In this document: positions 6,646 through 46,907 of the stretch, piece after piece
Layout of the letters: each line of letters begins with the position of its first letter
How positions within the stretch are numbered: the first letter of the stretch is position 1
Notes under the pieces: generated by a model
The model's input: only the letters and a program-made list of their open reading frames with translations
The model's database searches: none
Told to the model about the DNA's origin: nothing
Source of the DNA: Burkholderiales bacterium
GTDB lineage: Bacteria; Pseudomonadota; Gammaproteobacteria; Burkholderiales; SG8-39
Direction: 5' to 3'
NCBI GenBank assembly: GCA_035517095.1
Contig: DATIZK010000013.1
Span: forward strand, 44,348-108,347
Length of the DNA: 64,000 bases
Made by a program: the position numbers and the translations under genes

Positions 6646-7326
6646 TCAGGCGCCGACTTCGCGCTCGCCTAGCGTGTAGTCGCATCGGTAGAGCGCGCCA
6701 AGCACGGCTTCCGCGCCATGATCCTGCAGTCGACTCGCGGCCAGGTCGGTCTCGGTCAGTGCCGCCACGGCGCCTTCGCGGTATCCGGTGGCCAGCAGCG
6801 CCCAGTCCACCTTAGCGTCCGCGCCCCGGATCCGCTGCTCGTTCGTCATCTGCGGCGCCGCGGCGCCGATCAGCAGATGGACGCTGCCCAGGCCCGGCCG
6901 CGCCGGGAGCTTCGGCAGCACCTCCTGCATGAGCCACTCGCGCAGTCGCGGGCCGGCGCCGGCCACCGGCCTGAAGCGGGCGAGCAAGCCGAAGTGGCCG
7001 CTGCCGAGCCCGAAGCTGCCCGCCACCGAGCACAGCCCGCGCGCCATTGCGCGGTAGTGGGGCATCATCTTGCGCGTCCATGGGGTCGGGTTGTTCAGGC
7101 GCTCGAGATACGCGCTCGAAGCCAGGGTGGCGAGATCGGCGACCTCGTACAGCACGAGGTATCCGGGCCGCCCGCGCAGCGCCGCCCAGCGCGTGCCCCT
7201 GAGAAAGCCCGGAATCGACAATCGTTCCGGAAGATGCTCGTGGGTGTGCCAGTCATCGTGCTCATCCACCGCATCCTGCGCAATGTCGAACGACAGAAGC
7301 ATCGCGGCTTTGCCGAGTAGGGGCAT
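6646..7326 (-). CDS. conserved hypothetical protein (226 aa, two ferredoxin-like/EthD-like halves suspected)
   Basis: Clean ORF with coding-like composition (MPLLGKAAMLLSFDIAQDAVDEHDDWHTHEHLPERL...). The family assignment is uncertain. Confidence 0.65.
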   Translation of the reverse strand: MPLLGKAAMLLSFDIAQDAVDEHDDWHTHEHLPERLSIPGFLRGTRWAALRGRPGYLVLYEVADLATLASSAYLERLNNPTPWTRKMMPHYRAMARGLCSVAGSFGLGSGHFGLLARFRPVAGAGPRLREWLMQEVLPKLPARPGLGSVHLLIGAAAPQMTNEQRIRGADAKVDWALLATGYREGAVAALTETDLAASRLQDHGAEAVLGALYRCDYTLGEREVGA

Positions 7327-7347
7327 TCTCGTTTCTCCGTTGGCAGC

Positions 7348-7716
7348 CTAGCGATTCTGGCCGAGGCACAGCGTGTGCCCTTGATCATCCTTGATGATGG
7401 CCTCGCGCGTGCCCCAGGCTGTGTCGTGCACGTCCTTTACCAGCGCGACGCCGTTCGCCTTCAAGGCAGCGCTCGCGGCGGCGACATCGCTCGTCTCGAG
7501 ATACAGATGAAAATGCCCGCCTTCGTCCACGAACCGGATCGAAGGGTCCTTCTCGTCCACGCGCTTCAAGTGAAAGACCTGACTTCCGGCGCGTATTCCC
7601 GCGTAGAAGTCCTGGTAGCGAAACTCCAGGGTCAATCCCAGTTTGGTCGTGTAAAAGTGGATCGACGACGCCAGATCGGTCGTCCGGAGCTGAGCCATCA
7701 CGCCGGTTATCGCCAT
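7348..7716 (-). CDS. VOC family protein (glyoxalase/bleomycin-resistance fold)
   Basis: MAITGVMAQLRTTDLASSIHFYTTKLGLTLEF...AWGTREAIIKDDQGHTLCLGQ. An AGGAG RBS precedes ATG 7716. Confidence 0.85.
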   Translation of the reverse strand: MAITGVMAQLRTTDLASSIHFYTTKLGLTLEFRYQDFYAGIRAGSQVFHLKRVDEKDPSIRFVDEGGHFHLYLETSDVAAASAALKANGVALVKDVHDTAWGTREAIIKDDQGHTLCLGQNR

Positions 7717-7781
7717 CGGTGCTCCTAGCTGCTTACGTTCCGGTTCCGCCTCCGCGGTGAGCCAGAGCTTCTGGCCGCAAG

Positions 7782-8174
7782 TCACTGCCTGCGTTGCGCA
7801 TAAAGCGACTTTGCCGCCTCTTCCCAGTTCGCGCCGTCGAAGCGCCGCAAGGCAAGCGATGCGAGGTCCACGCCCTCGATACAGCGCACGTTTACCGCCC
7901 ACCTGCCCGGGTCGAGCCGCGGGCGCGAGAAGGGATGCACGCCGCAGCGGCGGCAGAAGTAGTGCTTCGCGGTCATGGTATTGAACTGATACAGCGTCAG
8001 CTCATCTTCTCCCGCCGTGATGCGCAGGCTGGCGTCCGATGCGCCGTGCCACAGGGCCCCGACGCGCCGGCACAGCGAGCAGCTGCACTCCATGACGTAG
8101 TCGAGCTTCGCGTCGAGCTCGAACGACACTCGACCGCAGTGACAGGAACCTCGGTAAGTGACTCGCGCGTTCAT
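7782..8174 (-). CDS. GFA family protein (CENP-V/glutathione-dependent formaldehyde-activating fold)
   Basis: Zinc-Cys motifs GSCHCGRVSFE, CSCSLCRR and FCRRCG are present. A GGGAGG RBS precedes ATG 8174. Confidence 0.85.
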   Translation of the reverse strand: MNARVTYRGSCHCGRVSFELDAKLDYVMECSCSLCRRVGALWHGASDASLRITAGEDELTLYQFNTMTAKHYFCRRCGVHPFSRPRLDPGRWAVNVRCIEGVDLASLALRRFDGANWEEAAKSLYAQRRQ

Positions 8175-8304
8175 CTTGCTGTTGCCTCCCTTGAACATGC
8201 ATGCCTGCAGCAATTGTGCCCAATCCTTGTCTTGTACGCACGGAAGCTGCGCCTTGAGCAAGACGCCGACCGGCATGGCTGGCTTCCCGAGCGCTCACTT
8301 CGGG

Positions 8305-8766
8305 CTACGCCGACTTCTCGAGCTCGAGATTGCCGTCGATGAACTTGAGCTTGAAGACAAGACGACGAATGCGCCACCGGTCCGGGAAGGCTTGCAGCTG
8401 CAGCTCGTAGGTGCCCACGAAGACGCGACTCTTCACCCCCGCGGACTGAGCCCTATGGTGGAAGGCTACCCCGTAGCACCTGAGGAGCGCTTGATCGCCG
8501 CCGACCTCGGTGCGGACATTGCCGATCTGATGGTGAACGTGATCGAGCGGCTTAAAACCCGTGGCCCATGCCTGAGCGACCTGGCTCGGGGTCATCTCTG
8601 TCGGCGCTCCGCCGACCATGGACGTCATGTCCAACGTAAAGGGGTTTGTGAAGCAATCTTCCAGCACCGGCCAGTCGCGTTCATCCGTCGCGACGAACAT
8701 CCGAACCACGGCGTCCTCGACCGCGAGGCGCGTAGCCAGTTCAGATACCGACAGAGATGGTGGCAT
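8305..8766 (-). CDS. nuclear transport factor 2 family protein (SnoaL-like)
   Basis: ELATRLAVEDAVVRMFVATDERDWPVLEDCFT...HHQIGN is the typical SnoaL_4 pattern. Confidence 0.8.
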   Translation of the reverse strand: MPPSLSVSELATRLAVEDAVVRMFVATDERDWPVLEDCFTNPFTLDMTSMVGGAPTEMTPSQVAQAWATGFKPLDHVHHQIGNVRTEVGGDQALLRCYGVAFHHRAQSAGVKSRVFVGTYELQLQAFPDRWRIRRLVFKLKFIDGNLELEKSA

Positions 8767-38839: not shown

Positions 38840-39955
38840 TCAGGCGAACGTCAGGTCGGGCTCGAGCCCGAGCAGGAAGCGCCCCACCGTCTCGAAGTGC
38901 GCGCGGCGGCCCTGCAGCTGCTGCGCCACGGCGTGCAGGTCGCGAAAGCGCCGCTCGAAGGGGTTGCGCTCGAACACCGCGCTCGCGCCCGCCGCGTGGT
39001 AGGCGGCGTCGCCCGCGGCGACCGCGTCCGCGAGCGCCTGGCTGGCGGCGAGCCGGATCGCCATGCGCTGCTCGAGCGTTAGCCGATTGCTCTGCTCGAC
39101 CTCGCGCCACACTTCGGCGAGCGCGCCGCGCAGGTAGGCGCGCGCCCCGCGCAGCCGCGCCTCGGCCTGCGCCAGGTCGGCCTGGAACAGCGCGCTTTCG
39201 CGCAGCCTGGTCTTGTAGCCGCGCGGGGTCTTCTCCTGCGCGAGCGCGACGAGCGCGTCGATCAGCGCGCGCGCCAGGCCGATCGCCACGCTGGCGAAGC
39301 CGGTGGCGAACATCGCGCCGGTGGGCAGGCAGTACAGCGGGCCGGGGTAGCGCCGCTCGGCCTGGTCGTCGCGCGACACGCTGAAGGCCCTGGGCACGAA
39401 CAGCTCCTTCACCTCGTAGGCGTCGCTCGCGGTGCCGCGCAGCCCGATTACCTGCCAGATGTCGCTCATCTGCGCCTGGTCGGCCGGAAAGAGCATGGTG
39501 CGCCCGACCTTGCCGCCCTCGATCGCGCAGTAGCCGCCGAGCCAGCTCGCGTGCCGGCCGCCGCTGGCGAAGGCGAACGATCCGCTCATGCGCCAGCCGC
39601 CCTCTACCGGCACCGCGCGCGCGTTCGGCCCGGGGCCCCAGGCCAGCACCGCGCGCGGGTCGCGCGCGAAGATCTCCTCGGCGACCTCGGGCGCGACGAA
39701 CGCGGCCACCATGGCGCAGACCGCGTTCTGGCACAGGCACCAGGCGGTGCTGGCGTCGTTGCGCGCGACTTGCTCGACGATCTCGACGAAGCCGAGCGGG
39801 TCGATCTCGCCCCCGCCGTAGGGCCTGGGCAGCAGCAGACGGAACCAGCCGCCCGCGTGCAGCGCATCGAGCAGCTCGGCGGGCAGGCGCCGCTCGCGCT
39901 CGATCGCGTCGGCCGAGCGCGCGCTCAGCGCGCCAAGCCCGGCAAGGTCCCTCAC
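38840..39955 (-). CDS. acyl-CoA dehydrogenase-fold flavoprotein (type-2/DszC-like oxygenase subgroup possible)
   Basis: Three-domain ACAD pattern (...GGWRMSGSFAFASG... and a C-terminal helical domain ...FERRFRDLHAVAQQ). The GTG 39955 start overlaps the upstream stop (GTGA). Confidence 0.78.
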   Translation of the reverse strand: MRDLAGLGALSARSADAIERERRLPAELLDALHAGGWFRLLLPRPYGGGEIDPLGFVEIVEQVARNDASTAWCLCQNAVCAMVAAFVAPEVAEEIFARDPRAVLAWGPGPNARAVPVEGGWRMSGSFAFASGGRHASWLGGYCAIEGGKVGRTMLFPADQAQMSDIWQVIGLRGTASDAYEVKELFVPRAFSVSRDDQAERRYPGPLYCLPTGAMFATGFASVAIGLARALIDALVALAQEKTPRGYKTRLRESALFQADLAQAEARLRGARAYLRGALAEVWREVEQSNRLTLEQRMAIRLAASQALADAVAAGDAAYHAAGASAVFERNPFERRFRDLHAVAQQLQGRRAHFETVGRFLLGLEPDLTFA

Positions 39956-40824
39956 CTCCGCTCCGCGCGCGGCAGCACCGCCGGCGTGGCGTCGTAGCCG
40001 GGCGCGTAATCGACGTTGCTCTGCGCCGGGTCGCGGTTCACCAGCGGCCGCGCGTAGAGCGGGTGGCGCATGCTGCGCACCTCGTGCTCGAGGACGAAGA
40101 GCTTCTTGCCGTTCGCCGGGTCGACCAGGTCGGTGAAGCGGTACTGGTGCTGGTCGCTCTCCTCGCTCACCAGGCCGCGCTCGAGCAGCCTGAGGTAGGG
40201 CCCGGAGAAGTCCGCCAGGTAGATCTGCACGTGGTGGCCGTCGTAGGGCGGAAGCTTGCGCTCGGTTTCGCGGTAGATCAGGACCTGGTCGGGGCCGACC
40301 GAAACGCGCGTTACGCCGTCCTCGTGGCGCGCGGGCGCGCCCACGATCTGGCGGTAGAAGCGCGCGATGCCCTCGGCGGCCGCGGGCGGCACGTCGAGCT
40401 CGACGTAGGGCATGCCGAGCCGCATGCGCCCGAAGCCGGGGTGCGGATCGTGGCAGCGGATCACGTTGCCCCAGGGGCTGACCGTCTCGACGTAGCCCTC
40501 GTGCTCGGCAAAGGCGAACCGCGTGCCCTCGAGCGGCTTGCGCGCGCGCGCCAGGCGCGCCAGCAGCGCCTCGCGCCCGGGCAACACTATGCCGACCCGC
40601 CCGCGCAGCACCTGCGGCTTCGCGCTCGGCAGGTGAAACTGGCTGCGCCCGACGTTGGCCCACATGTTGTCGGTGCCGGTCATCAGGTAGGGGTCGCGCG
40701 TCAGCCCGAGCGCGCTGATATAGAACGCGGTGGCGAGCTGCTGGTCGGGGATCCAGGTGTTGACGTGCTCCAGGGCAACGACATTGCCCAGGTCCTCGGC
40801 GGCGCGATCGTAGCTTTGCGGCAT
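39952..40824 (-). CDS. hypothetical protein, VOC/extradiol-dioxygenase-like fold suspected
   Basis: GNVVALEHVNTWIPDQQLATAFYISALGL... resembles a VOC beta-alpha-beta-beta-beta module. The start is taken at ATG 40824; the ORF-track start is TTG 40860. Confidence 0.6.
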   Translation of the reverse strand: MPQSYDRAAEDLGNVVALEHVNTWIPDQQLATAFYISALGLTRDPYLMTGTDNMWANVGRSQFHLPSAKPQVLRGRVGIVLPGREALLARLARARKPLEGTRFAFAEHEGYVETVSPWGNVIRCHDPHPGFGRMRLGMPYVELDVPPAAAEGIARFYRQIVGAPARHEDGVTRVSVGPDQVLIYRETERKLPPYDGHHVQIYLADFSGPYLRLLERGLVSEESDQHQYRFTDLVDPANGKKLFVLEHEVRSMRHPLYARPLVNRDPAQSNVDYAPGYDATPAVLPRAERR

Positions 40825-40888
40825 GAGCACCAGATTGCCGCATGCCATGGCGCTTGGCAATCCGGCGCCGATCGCGCCGCGAAGGATC

Positions 40889-42034
40889 CTAGTTCGCCGG
40901 TTGGGTCGAGTAGTAGTCGGCCAGGCTCTCGATGATGGCGTCGCCGTAAGGCAGGCTCATGGTGTGCATCATGGTGCTCTGGCGCCGGTCGTCGCGGTAC
41001 GCGCGCAGCGCCATGATCAGGTAGTCGCGGTCCTGACCATTGATCTTGGGGAATGCCACGTTGGGGTTGTCCGCCACCTCGGGACCATGGCAGCGATTGC
41101 ACTTGTCGGTCAGGTCCTGGACCAGGGTCTGTCCGCTCTCGGCGGGCTTCGATTTCTGGATCGAGTAGAAGGCGGCGATGTCATCGATCTGCTTGTCGCT
41201 CAGCTCGCTGACGTATATGCGCATGGCCTCGCGCTTGCGCAGCGTGCGGTAGGCCTTGATCGCATCGACCAGGTAGCGGGGGTCCTGCCCGGCGAGGCGC
41301 GGGGTCGCCGTATCCGCGCTCACCCCGGAGGGGCCATGGCAGCCGCCGCACACCGCGCTCAGCGGTTCGCCCGCCTTGGGGTCACCGAACGGCGGCGCCG
41401 CGCGTTCGGCGGGAGCCTGCGACGCAAAGTACAGCGCAAGGCTCTCCATCTGCAGCCGGTTGAGGCTGACCAGCATCGGATGCATCGGCGAGCGCGGGCG
41501 CTCCGCGTTGAGGTATTCCTGCATCGCGGCCACGAGATAGCGCGGCTGCTGGCCGGCGAGCGTGGGCGTGCCGGCAATCACGCTGTTGCCGTCGGCGCCG
41601 TGGCACCGCGCGCACTCAGCCGACAGTTTGCCGCCCTCCTCGTAGGGCGAAAAGACATGGGCCGGCTTGCCCTGCTTGGAAGCAACCGGCGGCTGCGAGG
41701 CGTAGTACGCGAGAACGTCGTGTTCCTGCGCCTGGGTCAGGCCTTCGGCAATCTTGCGCAGGACGACGTGAATGCGCTTGCCCTGCCGGTATTCGTCCAT
41801 CGCCTCGACCAGGTAGCGGTAGCGTTGCGCCGCAAGTGTCGGAATGCCCGGTGCCAGGCCCTTGCCGTCCAACCCGTGGCAACCCTTGCATTCGCGCTCG
41901 GCAATGCCCTTGCCGGCGGCGAGGTCCGCCGCGGGCTGCGCGGATCCTGCGCTCTTGGACGGCGGCTCCTCCTTGTTCGAGCAGGCGAGCAGAGCGGCGC
42001 AGAGCACGAGACCCAGCACGACGCGCGTCTTCAT
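40889..42034 (-). CDS. tetrahaem c-type cytochrome lipoprotein (four tandem class-I/c4-like domains)
   Basis: Lipobox LLAC-S. Four CXXCH motifs (CKGCH, CARCH, CGGCH, CNRCH), each followed by a P-x-L-A-G/A-Q...Y motif and a distal Met region. A GGAGG RBS is present. Confidence 0.9.
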   Translation of the reverse strand: MKTRVVLGLVLCAALLACSNKEEPPSKSAGSAQPAADLAAGKGIAERECKGCHGLDGKGLAPGIPTLAAQRYRYLVEAMDEYRQGKRIHVVLRKIAEGLTQAQEHDVLAYYASQPPVASKQGKPAHVFSPYEEGGKLSAECARCHGADGNSVIAGTPTLAGQQPRYLVAAMQEYLNAERPRSPMHPMLVSLNRLQMESLALYFASQAPAERAAPPFGDPKAGEPLSAVCGGCHGPSGVSADTATPRLAGQDPRYLVDAIKAYRTLRKREAMRIYVSELSDKQIDDIAAFYSIQKSKPAESGQTLVQDLTDKCNRCHGPEVADNPNVAFPKINGQDRDYLIMALRAYRDDRRQSTMMHTMSLPYGDAIIESLADYYSTQPAN

Positions 42035-42076
42035 CGCAAACCTCCGTTTTTTGATTCTACTCCGTCGCGCGAACGC

Positions 42077-44065
42077 TCATGCGAGACCCGCGCTGCCGAT
42101 GAAGCCGATGATGACGAGGATCAACAAAACCAGGCCGATGCTGATCAGCGTGAAGCCGAGGATTCTGGAGCCGAGCGTCATCGGGCGCGACGGAACGTCG
42201 ACCAGGTGCCTGTCCAGCTCTCCCGAGTCGACCAGGCGCTTGAATTCGACCGCGTGCTCGCGCTTGAACTCCTCCAGCGAGACAGCGCCGGTGAACATCA
42301 CGATGTCGAGCGGGAACTTGTCGGGCCGGAAGTGGTTGTTGAAGAAGTGCACCGTGAACAGGAACACGGCCGCGAGAATCGCCTCCTCGCCGTGCACCAG
42401 TGTCGCCACGTTGAAAACCCAGCCCGGAAGCACCGATGCGGTCACGTTGGGGAACCACAGCATCAGGCCGCTGCCGCCGATGATCGCAAAGCCCCAGAAC
42501 ACCGCCCAGTAGTCGAATTTCTCCCAGTAGGTCCAGCGGTCGAAGCCGGGCCGCGGCCCCTTGCCGACGAACCACTTGAACATCGCGACGATGTCCTTGA
42601 AGTCCTGCCAGCGCGGGACCAGGGAAGTGGGTCCGAACCAGCGGAACGACCTCCCCTTGCGCACGATATGGACCGCGAAATAGATCAGGTGCACCAGGAA
42701 GATCGTGATGAACACCGACGCGAACGTCCGGTGCACGATCGCTGCGACCTTCGGGCTGCCCAGCCAGCGCATGACCACCGGCGCCCACGGGCTGGAGCCG
42801 TAGAGCACCGACATCCCGGTGAGCACCAGCCCCATGACCGAAATCGCCAGCAACAGGTGCGCGAGGCGCCACAGCGGCCCGAAGCGCTGGAAATACTTGC
42901 CCTCGGGCGGCAGCGCCATCTCGCCGGTCTTGACGTACGGCCGCGTCTTGCGTTCCTGGCGGTCCCTGTACTCGCGGTAGAACCACAGCAGCATATGCGT
43001 CCAGAAGAACGCGAACACGCCCGCCAGCAGCGCGACCATGAAGCGTGCCGCGAGCCACAGATAGGGATAGTGCTTGAAGTCGTGCGCGTTGCCGTGCGGC
43101 TCGAACGTGACGAAGCCCGCGGTCGCGCCCTGGTGGCACTTCTGGCAGGTCTCAAGCCGGTTGGCCGGGTACACGCTCGAGCGCGGATCGTCGACCCGCT
43201 TGATGGTGTGGTGGCCGTGGCAATCGAAGCACTTGGCAGTGTAGCCGTAGCCCAGCTGGGTGATCTGGCCGTGGTAGGTTCCGAGGTAGGTCCTGAGCTG
43301 CTCCTGGTGGCACTTGCCGCAGTTCTTGGTGATGAGCACCCTGACCGACGCCAACTTCGGCGACTCGACGTTGTGCATGCTGTGGCAGTCCGCGCACACC
43401 GGCGCCGCCTGGATGCCGTACTTCAGCACCAGTTCGCCGTGGATCGACGTCGCGTATTCGGCGCGCTCCTTGACGTGGCATTTGCCGCAGATGTCGGGTA
43501 CCGTCAGCCGCCACTGCTCCCACGCCGGGCTGCCCTTGGGGTAGACGTAGTGCGCGTCGTGGCAGTTGTAGCAGGTGGCGTTGGTGCGCGACTGATCTGC
43601 CCGGCTCGGCCGGGCGTGAATCGATTTCATGTAGCCGTTGATCTGCTCCACCACGACCCCCAGCCGGGCAAACTGGGCGGTCTTGCCCTCACGCTGCGCC
43701 TGGGCCCACAGGTCTTCGTGGCATTCCACGCAGCTGACCTTGTGCTGCACGCCCGGCCGGTGCGGGATCTGCTGGATGTCCTTGTGGCACTCGACGCACA
43801 TGCGCTTGCCGTGCACGCTGTGGCCGAAGCGCGCGGAGTCGACGTGCAAGTCGCGCATTTTGCCGTCCGGGCCGGGCACCTGGAACCCTTCGGTGCCGTG
43901 GCAGGCCAGGCATGTTTCGTTGTTGAGCTGCTCGGCAGCCTGGCCGGATGCCTGGGCGCCGCCTGGCGCGGCGGGAGTGTCGGCCGCCGCCGCGAGGCTG
44001 GGTACGCCGGCAAGACAGGCAGCGCCCGCCAGCGCCCAAGCCGCTATCCTTCGCTTCATGTGCAT
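42077..44065 (-). CDS. nonahaem c-type cytochrome fused to a multi-TM b-type-cytochrome-like membrane domain (CbcL-like)
   Basis: Signal peptide and nine CXXCH motifs (CLACH, CVECH, CVECH, CYNCH, CGKCH, CADCH, CGKCH, CFDCH, CQKCH) in the first ~330 aa. About 6 TM helices follow, with conserved His (WTH, LAH, IVHRTF, LVH, LVHGEEA, TVHFF). A GGGAG RBS is present. Confidence 0.88.
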   Translation of the reverse strand: MHMKRRIAAWALAGAACLAGVPSLAAAADTPAAPGGAQASGQAAEQLNNETCLACHGTEGFQVPGPDGKMRDLHVDSARFGHSVHGKRMCVECHKDIQQIPHRPGVQHKVSCVECHEDLWAQAQREGKTAQFARLGVVVEQINGYMKSIHARPSRADQSRTNATCYNCHDAHYVYPKGSPAWEQWRLTVPDICGKCHVKERAEYATSIHGELVLKYGIQAAPVCADCHSMHNVESPKLASVRVLITKNCGKCHQEQLRTYLGTYHGQITQLGYGYTAKCFDCHGHHTIKRVDDPRSSVYPANRLETCQKCHQGATAGFVTFEPHGNAHDFKHYPYLWLAARFMVALLAGVFAFFWTHMLLWFYREYRDRQERKTRPYVKTGEMALPPEGKYFQRFGPLWRLAHLLLAISVMGLVLTGMSVLYGSSPWAPVVMRWLGSPKVAAIVHRTFASVFITIFLVHLIYFAVHIVRKGRSFRWFGPTSLVPRWQDFKDIVAMFKWFVGKGPRPGFDRWTYWEKFDYWAVFWGFAIIGGSGLMLWFPNVTASVLPGWVFNVATLVHGEEAILAAVFLFTVHFFNNHFRPDKFPLDIVMFTGAVSLEEFKREHAVEFKRLVDSGELDRHLVDVPSRPMTLGSRILGFTLISIGLVLLILVIIGFIGSAGLA

Positions 44066-44190
44066 CTCTGCTCCCTGAGCATTGCTTGCTGTTATTGTCG
44101 GTGCGAGACGGTATCATTGCGCCCTGACCGGGCCGTAGCGGGCGCAACGTTGACCGTTCGAGGTTATAAAGACAAGCCCCCGGCGCCGAT

Positions 44191-44204
44191 TTGACCTAGA
44201 TCAG
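44191..44204. promoter_or_regulatory. FNR/CRP-family box TTGAC-CTAG-ATCAG
   Basis: Read directly in the 238-bp divergent spacer. The centre (44197.5) lies 29.5 nt from the first base of a minus-strand TATAAC hexamer (44168-44163). That is class-II (-41.5) geometry for the 44065 operon. Confidence 0.45.
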
Positions 44205-44303
44205 AGCGCGACGAGATATGGTATGCGAAGTTGGCGGAATGACAAGCTTTTTAACCCGGCGGAGCGCTGACTAAGGCGTCTCGCCCCTAGCGGAGGTAGA
44301 GCA

Positions 44304-44630
44304 ATGAAGATCGCGAAAAACATGCTAGTCATCCTGGCGCTGGTGGCCGTCGGCGCGTTCAGCGCGAGCGCCATCGCGGTGCCGCCCGGCATGACGGTCG
44401 AGTTCGCCGGCGGTCCGATGGGCAAAGTCGTGTTCAGCGGCAAGATCCATGCCGATGCGGGCGTGAAGTGCAACGAATGCCACACCAAGATCTTCCAGAT
44501 GAAGAAAGGCGCGGACAAGATCACCATGGCCGCGATCGGAGAGGGCAAGTTCTGCGGCACCTGCCACAACGGCCAAAGGGCGTTCAAGGCGAACGACCCC
44601 GCCAACTGCACGAAGTGCCATAAGAAGTAG
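44304..44630 (+). CDS. small periplasmic trihaem cytochrome (c7/c3-family-like)
   Basis: Signal peptide and three CXXCH motifs (CNECH, CGTCH, CTKCH) in the spacing GKVVFS.K.H...C..CH...F.M......M....GK.CG.CH.G..AF......C..CH. A GGAGGT RBS is present. Confidence 0.88.
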   Translation: MKIAKNMLVILALVAVGAFSASAIAVPPGMTVEFAGGPMGKVVFSGKIHADAGVKCNECHTKIFQMKKGADKITMAAIGEGKFCGTCHNGQRAFKANDPANCTKCHKK

Positions 44631-44644
44631 CGGCGCAGCCCTGA

Positions 44645-44670
44645 CCGGCCCCGGCCTTGCCCGGGGCCGG
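44645..44670. terminator. GC-rich hairpin between convergent genes (CCGGCCCCGG-N6-CCGGGGCCGG)
   Basis: A 10-bp perfect stem read directly, 15 nt after the stop of the trihaem gene and 32 nt after the stop of the 44702 gene. No clear U-tract on either side. Confidence 0.4.
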
Positions 44671-44701
44671 GATCGTCAACGATCGAATCTGCCTGGCGCG
44701 C

Positions 44702-45499
44702 TCAGCCGAGCACGCGCGCGTTTGCCCCCGCTCGCTCGACGACCGCCCGAGGGGGCCTTGAAAACCACATCTGATACATCGCCACGATCCACATGTAGGC
44801 GAACGAGAACGCCATCAGTGCGCCGGCACTGATCACGACCCCAGCGAACGGATGGTACAGCTTGGTGAAGTACCAGGAGCTGACGTCCAGCACCAGGCCC
44901 AGGAACGGCGCCGCCATGACGGTGCACTTGAACCATACCGGGCGCACGAAGGCGTGGCTGAATATCAGCCCCACGATGAAGAAGATGAACGTGATGCCGA
45001 ACAGGTGGATGTGCGACACGCGCACCAGCGTGAATATTCCGGTGCCGGTGTCGATTTCGGTCACTTTCCTAAGGTTGTCGTAGCCGTTGAGGTTCGGCAG
45101 GTGCGGATTGCTGCCGTCGTGGCAGGCCATGCAGCGCTGGTCGAGTATGGGCTTGATGTCCTTCTCGTACTTGGCGCGATCGGAACCCTTCTCCACCCAG
45201 GTGATGACCGCGTTCATCTCGTCGCGCGGCAGCATGGTCGACATCGGCCCGCGCAGCGCCGATTCGAGGCGCGACATCTTGCCGCTGCCGCTGTAGGCGA
45301 CCACGATGTCCTCGTAGCTCAGGAGCATCGGATTGCCCCCCGCGCGCCCGGCATAGGTGTGGTACAGGTAGATGCCCGCGAACAGATACCCGAGCGCCAG
45401 CACCAGCAGCGCGCAGGTGTACAGCACGCGCAGGCTGTAAGGCAGCTCCGAATAATGCAGATAGAAGCGGTGTACGGGCGAAGGCGCGTCGGTCATCAT
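44702..45499 (-). CDS. 4-TM membrane protein with one periplasmic CXXCH haem motif (uncharacterised family)
   Basis: TM1 is followed by a ~100-aa loop containing IKPILDQRCMACHDGSNPHLPNL and then three more TM helices. It lies 13 nt downstream of the tetrahaem gene. Confidence 0.8.
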   Translation of the reverse strand: MMTDAPSPVHRFYLHYSELPYSLRVLYTCALLVLALGYLFAGIYLYHTYAGRAGGNPMLLSYEDIVVAYSGSGKMSRLESALRGPMSTMLPRDEMNAVITWVEKGSDRAKYEKDIKPILDQRCMACHDGSNPHLPNLNGYDNLRKVTEIDTGTGIFTLVRVSHIHLFGITFIFFIVGLIFSHAFVRPVWFKCTVMAAPFLGLVLDVSSWYFTKLYHPFAGVVISAGALMAFSFAYMWIVAMYQMWFSRPPRAVVERAGANARVLG

Positions 45500-45512
45500 C
45501 GATTCCTTTGGC

Positions 45513-46751
45513 TCACTGGCACGGCAGCGTCACGTACACGACCGGGCGCGCGCGCTGGCTGGCATAGTAGCCTGCGAGCGCGCCGACATCCACGCGGCTC
45601 AGCACGTCGGCCATTGCCGCCATCGTGGCGCTCTTGCGTGCTCCGGTCTGATACGCGCGCAGCGCCTGCTCCAGGTAGTCGAAGCGTTGCGCCGCGAGCG
45701 CCGGAATGCGCGGGTCGATGCTGTTGCCGTTGACGCCGTGGCAGCGATCGCAGCGCTCGACCCACTGCGCCGGGGACAAGGGCGGGCGCACGTTGGGCGG
45801 CTGCTTGGGCTCCAGCGCGGCGTAGTACGCGGCCAGATTCTTCACCGCACGATCGTCCAGCCCGGCCGCGATGCCGCTCATCACCGGATCGCTGCGCGCC
45901 CCGCTCTTGTAGTCGTGCAGCGCAGTCGCAAAATACCCGGCATCCTGGCCGGCGAGACTAGGCGTGACCGGATTCCCGCTCACGCCCTGCTCGCCATGGC
46001 AGCCGACGCACGCTGCCGCCGCAGTCTTGCCCGCCTCCCGGTCGCCTTGCGCCGGGGTCTGCGCGCGGGCGGGCTTTTGCAGCGCGTAATACAATGCAAT
46101 GCTCTTGATCTCCGAATCCCCCAGCGTGCCGACCATCGACTTCATCATGTCGCTCTTGCGCTGCCCGCTCTTGTAGGTGGAGATCGCCGCGGCCAGATAC
46201 TTGGGATCCTGGCCGACCAGATTTGGCATCCCCGGCGTCGCGCTGACGCCGTGCTCGCCGTGGCAGCCCGCACATGCGGACGTAGCCGCCTCGGCGGCTT
46301 GGAGCGTAGAGCCCTTGGCTGCCGCGGCAGCCGCTCCGCGCAGCGGTGCCGGGGGCGCCGGCTCGAGGCTCGCGTAATAGGCGGAGACCTCGACCAGCGC
46401 GTCGTCACTGAGGAACTTTACCGAGCGCGCCATGGCTTCGTTGGCGCGCTGCCCCGTCTTGTAGGCCTTCAATTCGAGATAGAAATAGGCTGCGCGCTGG
46501 CCCGCGATGTTGGGAATTCCCGGGATCGCGCTCTGCCCGCTCACACCGTGACATGCAGCGCAGGAACTTTCGGCGACGGCTTTGCCCTCCGCGATGTCCG
46601 CCGCGCCGGCGTACACGGCACGGAAGTCGTCGCCCTTGCGCGGCGTCACCGTGACCGCCTGGCCGGCTGCCTGCGCAACATAAGCCGCGAGCGCGATGGC
46701 TGCGCAAGCAGCTGACACGGCCCGGATTGCAGCTTGGGTCCGGCGCTTCAT
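45513..46751 (-). CDS. periplasmic tetrahaem c-type cytochrome (four tandem class-I/c4-like domains)
   Basis: Signal peptide and four CXXCH motifs (CAACH, CAGCH, CVGCH, CDRCH) with P-x-[IL]-[AV]-[GA]-Q...Y...Y..G.R motifs. The start is taken at ATG 46751, 7 nt after GAGGAA; the ORF-track start is GTG 46757. Confidence 0.9.
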   Translation of the reverse strand: MKRRTQAAIRAVSAACAAIALAAYVAQAAGQAVTVTPRKGDDFRAVYAGAADIAEGKAVAESSCAACHGVSGQSAIPGIPNIAGQRAAYFYLELKAYKTGQRANEAMARSVKFLSDDALVEVSAYYASLEPAPPAPLRGAAAAAAKGSTLQAAEAATSACAGCHGEHGVSATPGMPNLVGQDPKYLAAAISTYKSGQRKSDMMKSMVGTLGDSEIKSIALYYALQKPARAQTPAQGDREAGKTAAAACVGCHGEQGVSGNPVTPSLAGQDAGYFATALHDYKSGARSDPVMSGIAAGLDDRAVKNLAAYYAALEPKQPPNVRPPLSPAQWVERCDRCHGVNGNSIDPRIPALAAQRFDYLEQALRAYQTGARKSATMAAMADVLSRVDVGALAGYYASQRARPVVYVTLPCQ

Positions 46752-46907
46752 AAGCACTTCCTCTGAAACAGGAACGGGTTCATCGAGCGAGGCAGTTTAA
46801 CGCAACGGGCCTTATCGAGAATTGCGCCACGGGATCGTCAGCGATGGGCCGCGGATTTATGGAGTGCGGGCAGTGGCGCCAGCCTAGTGAACCCTGGAAA
46901 CGCGCGC

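Follow-up and report, generated by a model that had tools for sequence, protein, structure and literature searches.

The 64-kb stretch of DNA analysed here (the window, to whose positions all coordinates refer) originates from a wetland metagenome and carries, at 42077..44065 on the minus strand (stop codon 42077-42079), a gene for a 662-aa bc-type cytochrome of the CbcL/MtoC/MtrH family. This protein, the target of the analysis, is a further member of a family that has already been described and is common in Proteobacteria. It probably works in the inner membrane, where it would move electrons between the quinone pool and periplasmic cytochromes. Its electron partners are likely to be the cytochromes encoded beside it, and the protein may be linked to extracellular electron transfer in the source organism.

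Few routes are known by which the quinone pool exchanges electrons with periplasmic multihaem cytochromes, and the CbcL/MtoC/MtrH family is one of them. It serves as a metagenome marker of iron cycling and extracellular electron transfer, and experimental study within the family has been confined to the Geobacter protein. The window brings no new kind of protein. The most interesting by-product of the analysis is a conserved partnership with two PdsA-like tetrahaem cytochromes and an abundant membrane haem protein of family PF27139, a fixed partner set with which a large clade of the family travels.

Architecture of the protein and its place in the CbcL/MtoC/MtrH family

The gene was assigned from the open reading frame (ORF) list, from matches to Pfam multihaem families and PF01292, and from an AlphaFold2 (AF2) model. 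The ORF is intact, and a GGGAG Shine-Dalgarno sequence lies ~6 nt 5' of its first ATG. The product begins with a Sec signal peptide (residues 1-29, 43979..44065, minus strand) comprising a KRR n-region and a hydrophobic core, which was recognised by the hydrophobic segment at residues 6-29 and by the low predicted local distance difference test (pLDDT) scores of the N-terminus; the cleavage site, as read off the sequence, would be AAA|AD. A periplasmic nine-haem c-type domain follows (residues 30-333, 43067..43978, minus strand), delimited by motif positions, conservation and profile matches. Its nine CXXCH motifs are located at residues 52, 90, 112, 165, 193, 224, 249, 279 and 307 (span 52-311), and the only cysteine outside these motifs is C17, within the signal peptide. 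When all six frames of the 64 kb were surveyed, CXXCH-bearing ORFs numbered five and were all grouped at 40.9-46.8 kb, and the motif density of the target is therefore not a matter of chance. The remaining part of the protein (residues 334-662, 42080..43066, minus strand) forms a membrane domain, supported by PF01292, the FdnI alignment, Foldseek and conservation. Its six transmembrane (TM) helices span residues 334-370, 397-421, 438-473, 513-537, 549-578 and 627-661 according to Kyte-Doolittle hydropathy and the helices of the AF2 model (mean pLDDT 86.3, predicted TM-score 0.81).

The original prediction, which was made from the DNA alone, had described a signal peptide, nine CXXCH motifs and about six TM helices in one 662-aa ORF. 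ORF analysis, motif scan, hydropathy and the AF2 model agree with all of these elements. Lysine and arginine residues numbered 20 in the three predicted cytoplasmic loops and 1 in the two short periplasmic loops. Attachment of c-type haem takes place in the periplasm. Considering this positive-inside bias, the signal peptide and the site of c-haem attachment, the CXXCH domain is placed in the periplasm and not in the cytoplasm, so that the check on topology proposed with the prediction came out in its favour. We also considered whether the gene might be a pseudogene and rejected this, given that the ORF is intact and conserved.

CbcL of Geobacter sulfurreducens (GSU0274) behaves in a potential-gated manner and oxidises menaquinol when the acceptor lies below about -0.1 V. 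Its periplasmic domain (residues 30-279) holds nine bis-His haems, its six-TM dihaem b domain is of the 'three-helix' FdnI/HydC type, and PpcA is its partner (PMC9129911; bioRxiv 10.1101/2022.08.31.506072). The target shares this layout, with a signal peptide, nine haem motifs within ~260-280 residues and six TM helices containing an FdnI/HydC-type dihaem b core. It also shares conserved non-motif histidines and a c domain without conserved methionine. Further, the gene for a c7-type trihaem cytochrome that adjoins the target gene recalls the CbcL-PpcA pairing.

The comparison with CbcL was made through the protein P0284 and a gene of locus L085, both of which are tied to CbcL only through a short G. 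sulfurreducens fragment derived by optical character recognition. P0284, of the CbcL clade, was 53% identical to the target over 133 aa (E 3e-45). The CbcL-clade gene of L085 was 26% identical over 438 aa, from the haem domain to TM3, and 51% identical over 152 aa covering the loop and TM4-TM5, which amounts to ~33% identity overall with a combined E of 2e-76. TM4-TM5 and the loop that precedes them are thus 51-53% identical to the CbcL clade, whereas the haem domain and TM1-3 show ~26% identity, and the target stands on a separate, proteobacterial branch of the family. Members of the Desulfuromonadia CbcL clade share at least 57.6% identity (PMC6295460). Because of its ~33% identity to the CbcL-clade gene and its place on the proteobacterial branch of a neighbour-joining (NJ) tree, the target is, as judged by sequence, a true CbcL homologue and not an orthologue within the Desulfuromonadia clade. 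The term 'CbcL-like' in the original prediction was borne out in this sense. The target also differs from CbcL in its host, a betaproteobacterium that probably uses ubiquinone and not menaquinone, and in its partners, which are mainly His/Met c4-type tetrahaem cytochromes and the PF27139 membrane protein; for CbcL, we found no literature report of such partners.

The L085 gene contains nine CXXCH motifs when read across frameshifts. It is located on a 686-kb long-read contig of a metagenome-assembled genome (MAG), where frameshifts, which are probably assembly errors, split it into several ORFs. The gene lies directly after atpI/B/E and is followed by a 482-aa NapC/NirT-like multihaem gene that could be ImcH-like; the two together cover L085:4635-6805 and 7076-8524. 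Among the 280 fetched proteins screened, none carried the published CbcL landmarks V205 and F525.

In Proteobacteria, MtoC of Dechloromonas aromatica and Gallionella capsiferriformans and MtrH of Rhodoferax ferrireducens were reported in 2012, and a survey by Zhong and Shi (2018) listed 138 homologues of the CbcL/MtrH/MtoC family in 15 phyla, 103 of them in Proteobacteria (PMC6295460). The published identity between CbcL and MtoC/MtrH is ~35%, and MtoC/MtrH proteins are mutually 55-59% identical (PMC6295460). An NJ tree built from the homologues of the fetched loci separated two groups. Members of the target clade were 56-84% identical to the target, and the second group comprised Gallionella, Rhodoferax and Paucibacter MAG genes at 50-54% identity, close to the spread among the published MtoC/MtrH proteins. 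Genes of this second group adjoin genes for MtoD-like monohaem, MtoA-like decahaem and MtrC-like proteins, which is the published MtoC/MtrH setting. The target therefore shares family and architecture with MtoC (Gallionella, Dechloromonas) and MtrH (Rhodoferax ferrireducens) but falls into a separate NJ clade, and the window contains a c4/c4/PF27139 module in place of mtoA, mtoB and mtoD neighbours. The clades also differ at haem site 5, which is CX2CH (CGKCH) in the target clade and CX3CH (CGxxCH) in the MtoC/MtrH-type clade (P0121-P0123; L058, L064, L077, L078 and others). Nine haem sites are present in both clades; because of the CX3CH motif at site 5, counting CX2CH motifs only returns eight haems for the MtoC/MtrH-type clade.

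The original prediction had further regarded the occurrence of this architecture in a beta- or gammaproteobacterial genome as unusual, a view that is contradicted by the 2012 and 2018 reports and by our own counts. A protein search with the target yielded more than 1695 matches among 8000 scored candidates, with the best 120 all at least 62% identical. At 50% identity, the family formed 869 clusters (E <= 1e-30). Species-representative genomes of Beta-, Gamma- and Alphaproteobacteria contained at least 588 family members, with matches in Gallionella, Sideroxydans, Rhodoferax, Thiobacillus, Sulfuricaulis, Chromatiaceae, Lysobacterales and Hyphomicrobiales. The nearest genome copy was 84% identical and belonged to an uncultured betaproteobacterium (L060). 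The 138 homologues counted in 2018 thus greatly understate how common the family is among Proteobacteria of soil, wetland and groundwater.

An FdnI-type membrane domain and the proposed electron path

PF01292 (prokaryotic cytochrome b561, Ni-hydrogenase/FdnI type) matched residues 394-574 of the target with 32.5 bits against a gathering score of 30.1, and NCBIfam returned sub-threshold matches of the membrane domain to formate dehydrogenase gamma subunits. Searched against the PDB as a single sequence, the membrane domain gave noise only, and a family profile was needed. This profile, built from 78 members with identities down to 30%, matched E. coli FdnI (PDB 1kqf_C) with an E of 7.6e-10 over residues 3-207 of 217, at a sequence identity between target and FdnI of ~16%. 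Foldseek with the AF2 model likewise placed FdnI at the top (probability 1.00, TM-score 0.76 normalised to FdnI, root-mean-square deviation 3.8 Å), with HyaC as a weaker match; a solved structure spanning the entire c+b fusion was not found by Foldseek.

In the profile alignment, FdnI H18, H57, H155 and H169 correspond to target H403, H445, H558 and H573, respectively. These candidate ligands lie in TM2 (H403), TM3 (H445) and TM5 (H558 and H573). Across the 78 sequences, H445 and H558 are invariant and H403 and H573 at least 90% conserved. Together, the alignment and the model support that TM2-TM5 form an FdnI-type dihaem b core, and we propose that H403 and H573 ligate a cytoplasmic-side haem and H445 and H558 a periplasmic-side haem. 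In FdnI, as reported by Jormakka et al. (2002), H18 and H169 ligate the cytoplasmic-side haem and H57 and H155 the periplasmic-side haem, and N110, G112 and Q113 line the site for 2-heptyl-4-hydroxyquinoline N-oxide (HQNO) and menaquinone; these assignments agree with the numbering from the profile alignment. The most conserved stretch of the family, R510-WTYWEKFD-518 of the motif RWTYWEKFDYW (510-520), aligns with FdnI K108-M116 and hence with the loop of the HQNO site. Considering the homology to FdnI and the alignment of this highly conserved loop with the reported HQNO/menaquinone-site residues, the quinone site of the target would be located at the cytoplasmic face.

The likeness to FdnI (cytochrome b556 subunit of E. 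coli formate dehydrogenase-N, 1KQF chain C), and also to HyaC/HydC, thus consists in the fold and the four aligned ligand histidines of TM2-TM5. In contrast to FdnI, the target possesses two additional helices, TM1 and TM6, and has a nine-haem c domain, to which it is joined covalently, as electron partner instead of an FeS or molybdopterin partner.

The original prediction had likened the helix histidines to those of FdnI, HydC and NarI. Similarity of the C-terminal domain to a b-type cytochrome family was found, with PF01292 above its gathering score, and the FdnI/HydC part of the comparison was upheld by PF01292, the family profile and Foldseek. The NarI part was not: the NarI family PF02665 gave no match to the target at E up to 0.1 in Pfam and NCBIfam searches, and NarI was absent from the fold matches, which returned FdnI and HyaC. 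We therefore rejected a NarI-type b cytochrome. All histidines that the prediction listed are present. Besides the four FdnI-aligned residues, H357 and H578 on the cytoplasmic side are conserved and have no FdnI counterpart; conservation does not extend to H459 and H466.

Given its FdnI/HydC-homologous b domain, the protein could also be the anchor or electron-entry module of a periplasmic catalytic enzyme (FdnI/HydC/PhsC-like), with the nine-haem domain replacing the FeS subunit. Homologues are indeed named 'cytochrome b subunit of formate dehydrogenase' or 'thiosulfate reductase cytochrome b subunit' in their sources. However, these names are automatic transfers from the PF01292 domain, and genes for molybdopterin, NiFe, FeS or other catalytic subunits are absent from the cluster and not conserved beside homologues. 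An enzyme anchor is thus highly improbable, and the version with a Mo or NiFe enzyme was rejected because the partner genes were not found.

Turning to the c-type domain, the family profile searched against the PDB matched MtrA (6r2q_A, E 3.6e-16) and further 28pb_A, GSU1996, NrfB, HAO and MtrC, matches that are best read as generic multihaem-wire similarity. All nine haem sites could be aligned throughout the family. Seven non-motif histidines (H85, H172, H209, H231, H265, H286 and H324) are conserved family-wide, and no methionine is. In CbcL, all c haems were shown by spectroscopy to be bis-His ligated (PMC9129911), and the seven conserved histidines together with the lack of any conserved methionine fit the same arrangement in the target. 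Conservation picks out seven of the nine distal ligands in this way, and all nine haems may well be bis-His ligated. For haems 1-3, 28pb_A (278 aa, titled only 'Cytochrome c') was the second-best profile match with an E of 7.4e-12, and it was not close to any fetched sequence.

We propose that the quinone or quinol site lies at the cytoplasmic face beside the cytoplasmic-side b haem (H403/H573) and that electrons would cross the membrane via the second, periplasmic-side b haem (H445/H558). They would then enter the nine-haem wire in the periplasm and pass onward to the two PdsA-like c4 tetrahaems, one of which is probably lipid-anchored, to the c7 trihaem and possibly to the PF27139 monohaem protein. 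If quinol is oxidised, a b domain of FdnI polarity would deliver the protons to the cytoplasm and send the electrons outward, and membrane potential would be dissipated, not built, as has been argued for CbcL (bioRxiv 10.1101/2022.08.31.506072). The reverse direction would build membrane potential and would need donors well below the quinone couple. A published comparison found no sequence feature that tells the direction (PMC6295460), and the sequence of the target, taken by itself, does not tell it either.

Co-encoded cytochromes and the possible destination of the electrons

Along the minus strand, the cluster at 40.9-46.8 kb consists of a 414-aa c4-like gene, the PF27139 gene, the c7 gene (on the plus strand), the target and a 381-aa c4-like gene. 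The 381-aa product (40889..42034, minus strand, 42 bp 3' of the target) is a tetrahaem class-I (c4/PdsA-like) cytochrome with four Pfam Cytochrom_C matches and an NCBIfam PdsA match at E 9e-30, below cutoff. The 414-aa product (45513..46757, minus strand, 13 bp before the PF27139 gene) is a cytochrome of the same type according to Pfam, and its PdsA match (E 5.6e-34) is likewise below cutoff. For these c4-like proteins, PdsA, the dihaem periplasmic shuttle of Mtr systems, was the best NCBIfam match. The PF27139 (Aq_1264_TM) gene at 44702..45499 on the minus strand encodes a 265-aa monohaem membrane protein, assigned from a precomputed Pfam label and conservation. The divergently transcribed c7 gene at 44304..44630 on the plus strand encodes a 108-aa trihaem cytochrome of the PpcA-like fold class (PF14522 E 2.7e-19; TIGR04257 80.9 bits against a cutoff of 40).

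To what extent these genes accompany homologues was seen in a neighbourhood screen of 84 loci, in which L001-L003 were counted separately. The 381-aa c4 gene was present beside homologues in 42/84 loci and PF27139 in 35/84, so that the c4-like pair and PF27139 accompany homologues in 35-42 of the 84 loci, mostly those at least 56% identical. The module of these three genes occurs in roughly half of the 80 related loci. The c7 gene was confined to the closest relatives (L001-3 and L060). The c4-type partners named in the original prediction thus proved real and conserved. In the literature, we found no description of the c4/c4/PF27139 partner set of the target clade. Family variants of ~737 aa (P0038, P0044, P0047, P0052, P0054 and others) contain a class-I cytochrome c domain (PF00034/PF13442) as an additional, fused part, so that in some members the c4-type partner is joined covalently.

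Conduit genes were counted within ~10 kb of the homologue in loci of at least 15 kb, of which 20 belonged to the target clade and 19 to the MtoC/MtrH clade. MtrB was encoded in 8/20 and MtrA in 12/20 target-clade loci, compared with 7/19 each in the MtoC/MtrH clade. Pfam-verified MtrB/PioB porins (MtrB_PioB E 7e-123), MtrA-like decahaems and an MtrC-like protein adjoin genes of the target's own clade. In L021, a whole island is present, with MtrC- and DmsE/MtrA-family matches (TIGR03507, TIGR03508) above NCBIfam cutoffs. Like MtoC/MtrH, relatives of the target clade thus often adjoin MtrAB(C), and the c4/c4/PF27139 module does not replace Mtr conduits.

About a dozen loci (L004, L013-L015, L020-L022, L026, L030, L043, L045, L067) add genes for an NrfC/TtrB/DsrO-like 4Fe-4S protein and an NrfD/DsrP-like membrane protein (for example L021:6866-9646). 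A hexahaem ORF of ~330-370 aa occurs in at least L020, L021, L022 and L043; in L021, it combines a tetrahaem with a fused, PdsA-like dihaem unit. The set has the appearance of a NetBCD-like quinol dehydrogenase, the second in these loci next to the CbcL-type enzyme. Since the module adjoins MtrAB(C) conduits and NrfCD/NetBCD-like genes in many relatives, we take the usual job of the family to be the inner-membrane step of extracellular electron transfer. NetBCD-PdsA and CymA, which serve the Mtr systems of Aeromonas, Vibrio and Shewanella as inner-membrane quinol dehydrogenases and periplasmic shuttle, have the same proposed job, from the quinone pool to MtrA-feeding periplasmic cytochromes. 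The c4-like neighbours of the target resemble PdsA, and the NrfC/NrfD-like genes beside the module in the dozen related loci add to the likeness. However, the quinone-reactive proteins are unrelated (NrfD-type or NapC/NirT-type versus FdnI-type), NrfCD-like genes are lacking in the window, and its c4-like proteins are tetrahaems, corresponding to two PdsA-like units, and fall below the PdsA cutoff.

Several points weigh against the preferred reading and its extracellular link. Homologues of MtrA, MtrB, MtrC and NrfCD were not found in the 64-kb window, and in the closest relatives (L060, L001 and L005) the surrounding 10 kb were likewise free of them. The genes flanking the cluster are ordinary heterotroph housekeeping genes. 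As read from sequence, the co-encoded c4 cytochromes are mostly His/Met, and because His/Met haems are usually high-potential, these partners are as compatible with an aerobic or denitrifying chain as they are with an extracellular one. In the literature examined (PMC6295460; PMC8805035), experimental evidence on proteobacterial family members was not found. Lastly, the comparison with CbcL used the CbcL-clade proxies P0284 and L085 in place of the full-length G. sulfurreducens protein.

Some of these points would suit an internal respiratory branch, in which oxidation of (ubi)quinol feeds the nine haems and then the high-potential c4 tetrahaems without an extracellular step. Terminal acceptors would be periplasmic or terminal reductases, for example a cbb3/aa3 oxidase, a nitrite reductase or an N2O reductase, and the target would act as a bc1-independent, low-coupling quinol:cytochrome c oxidoreductase, possibly in complex with the PF27139 protein. 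In addition to the failure to find conduit genes in the window or the nearest relatives, this is consistent with the class-I c4-type partners, which have Met ligand motifs in domains 2-4, with the four-gene module lacking a neighbouring Mtr conduit in 8-12 of the 20 larger same-clade loci, and with the relative in L004, the gene of which follows narGHJI. Yet MtrB (8/20) and MtrA (12/20) accompany same-clade genes as often as those of the MtoC/MtrH clade, PdsA-type c4 cytochromes are known Mtr shuttles (NCBIfam NF049874; PMC8805035), and a conduit could be encoded elsewhere in the source genome. Between an internal branch to the c4 cytochromes and a conduit encoded elsewhere, the window does not decide; overall, we regard the purely internal role as unlikely. 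The L004 gene (L004:1-6250) is a 66%-identical relative situated ~4 kb downstream of narGHJI, with MtrB/PioB fragments ~9 kb downstream, a layout that suggests that the genome concerned links the module with nitrate respiration and with a porin-cytochrome conduit.

Alternatively, the target could serve electron uptake as a quinone reductase, as has been proposed for MtoC. Extracellular Fe(II) or another reduced donor would supply electrons, which would pass via periplasmic cytochromes, the nine haems and the b haems to quinone, which would be reduced at the cytoplasmic face with cytoplasmic protons and would, as in FdnI, help the proton-motive force. Betaproteobacteria normally use ubiquinone, and since ubiquinone has the higher potential, flow from low-potential bis-His haems to quinone would be favourable. 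The FdnI-type polarity of the b domain and the wetland origin of the sequence are in keeping with uptake, as are the MtoC homologues within the Mto clusters of Fe(II)-oxidisers, which are proposed quinone reductases (PMC6295460; PMC8805035). However, the target lies outside the Gallionella/Rhodoferax MtoC/MtrH clade and has CX2CH instead of CX3CH at haem 5, and lithotrophy or carbon-fixation genes were not seen in the window. Moreover, a low-potential haem wire would be poorly supplied with electrons by the high-potential c4 partners, and the published comparisons offer no direction-telling feature on which uptake could be founded (PMC6295460). We consider uptake doubtful, albeit a serious possibility.

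A more far-reaching and rather improbable idea is that the target clade, the two c4 tetrahaems and PF27139 constitute a distinct, widespread bc1-independent quinol:cytochrome c4 oxidoreductase complex, conduit-free here, with PF27139 as a new haem-binding subunit. We retain the reading of an inner-membrane cytochrome that connects the quinone pool with periplasmic cytochromes. Because the same clade occurs with and without Mtr conduits, a CbcL/MtoC match alone should be taken to show neither that extracellular electron transfer takes place nor in which direction.

Further features of the cluster and its surroundings

The PF27139 protein consists of TM1, a periplasmic CMACH monohaem domain and three further TM helices. 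Invariance was seen for the motif RVSHIHLFG (H163, H165) and for H182, H216, M86 and M89. Its AF2 model (pLDDT 59.7) is confident for the TM helices only. Its homologues numbered 3,885, and the informative names among the best 120 read 'hypothetical protein' save for a few evident mis-annotations. The gene is nearly always located directly 3' of a c4-like tetrahaem gene. No literature on PF27139/Aq_1264 was found.

The 381-aa c4 tetrahaem begins with a lipobox-like signal (LLAC|SNKEEPPSK), after which comes a linker rich in Pro, Ser and Ala. In haem domain 1, it has a histidine (RIH) where domains 2-4 have Met motifs (SPMHPM, REAMRIY and STMMHTM). The protein may hence be membrane-tethered and contain one bis-His haem.

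The target and c7 genes diverge from a 238-bp intergenic region (44066..44303) that contains a sigma-70-like site on the minus strand at 44245-44218. One such site was found against 0.8 expected by chance, so that it gives a positional hint only, and the promoter and terminator scan stayed at chance level.

The G+C content was 0.64-0.65 across 42001-46000, compared with ~0.68-0.69 in neighbouring 2-kb bins. The drop across the cytochrome cluster may be a hint of horizontal acquisition; dips that are as deep or deeper are seen in other parts of the window (0.60 at 8-10 kb and 0.66 at 48-50 kb). At the other end of the cluster, after a gap of 28 bp, a 302-aa ORF (39952-40860, minus strand) is conserved in the closest relatives only, with an orthologue in L001 that has no Pfam match, and the next gene after it is acyl-CoA dehydrogenase-like.

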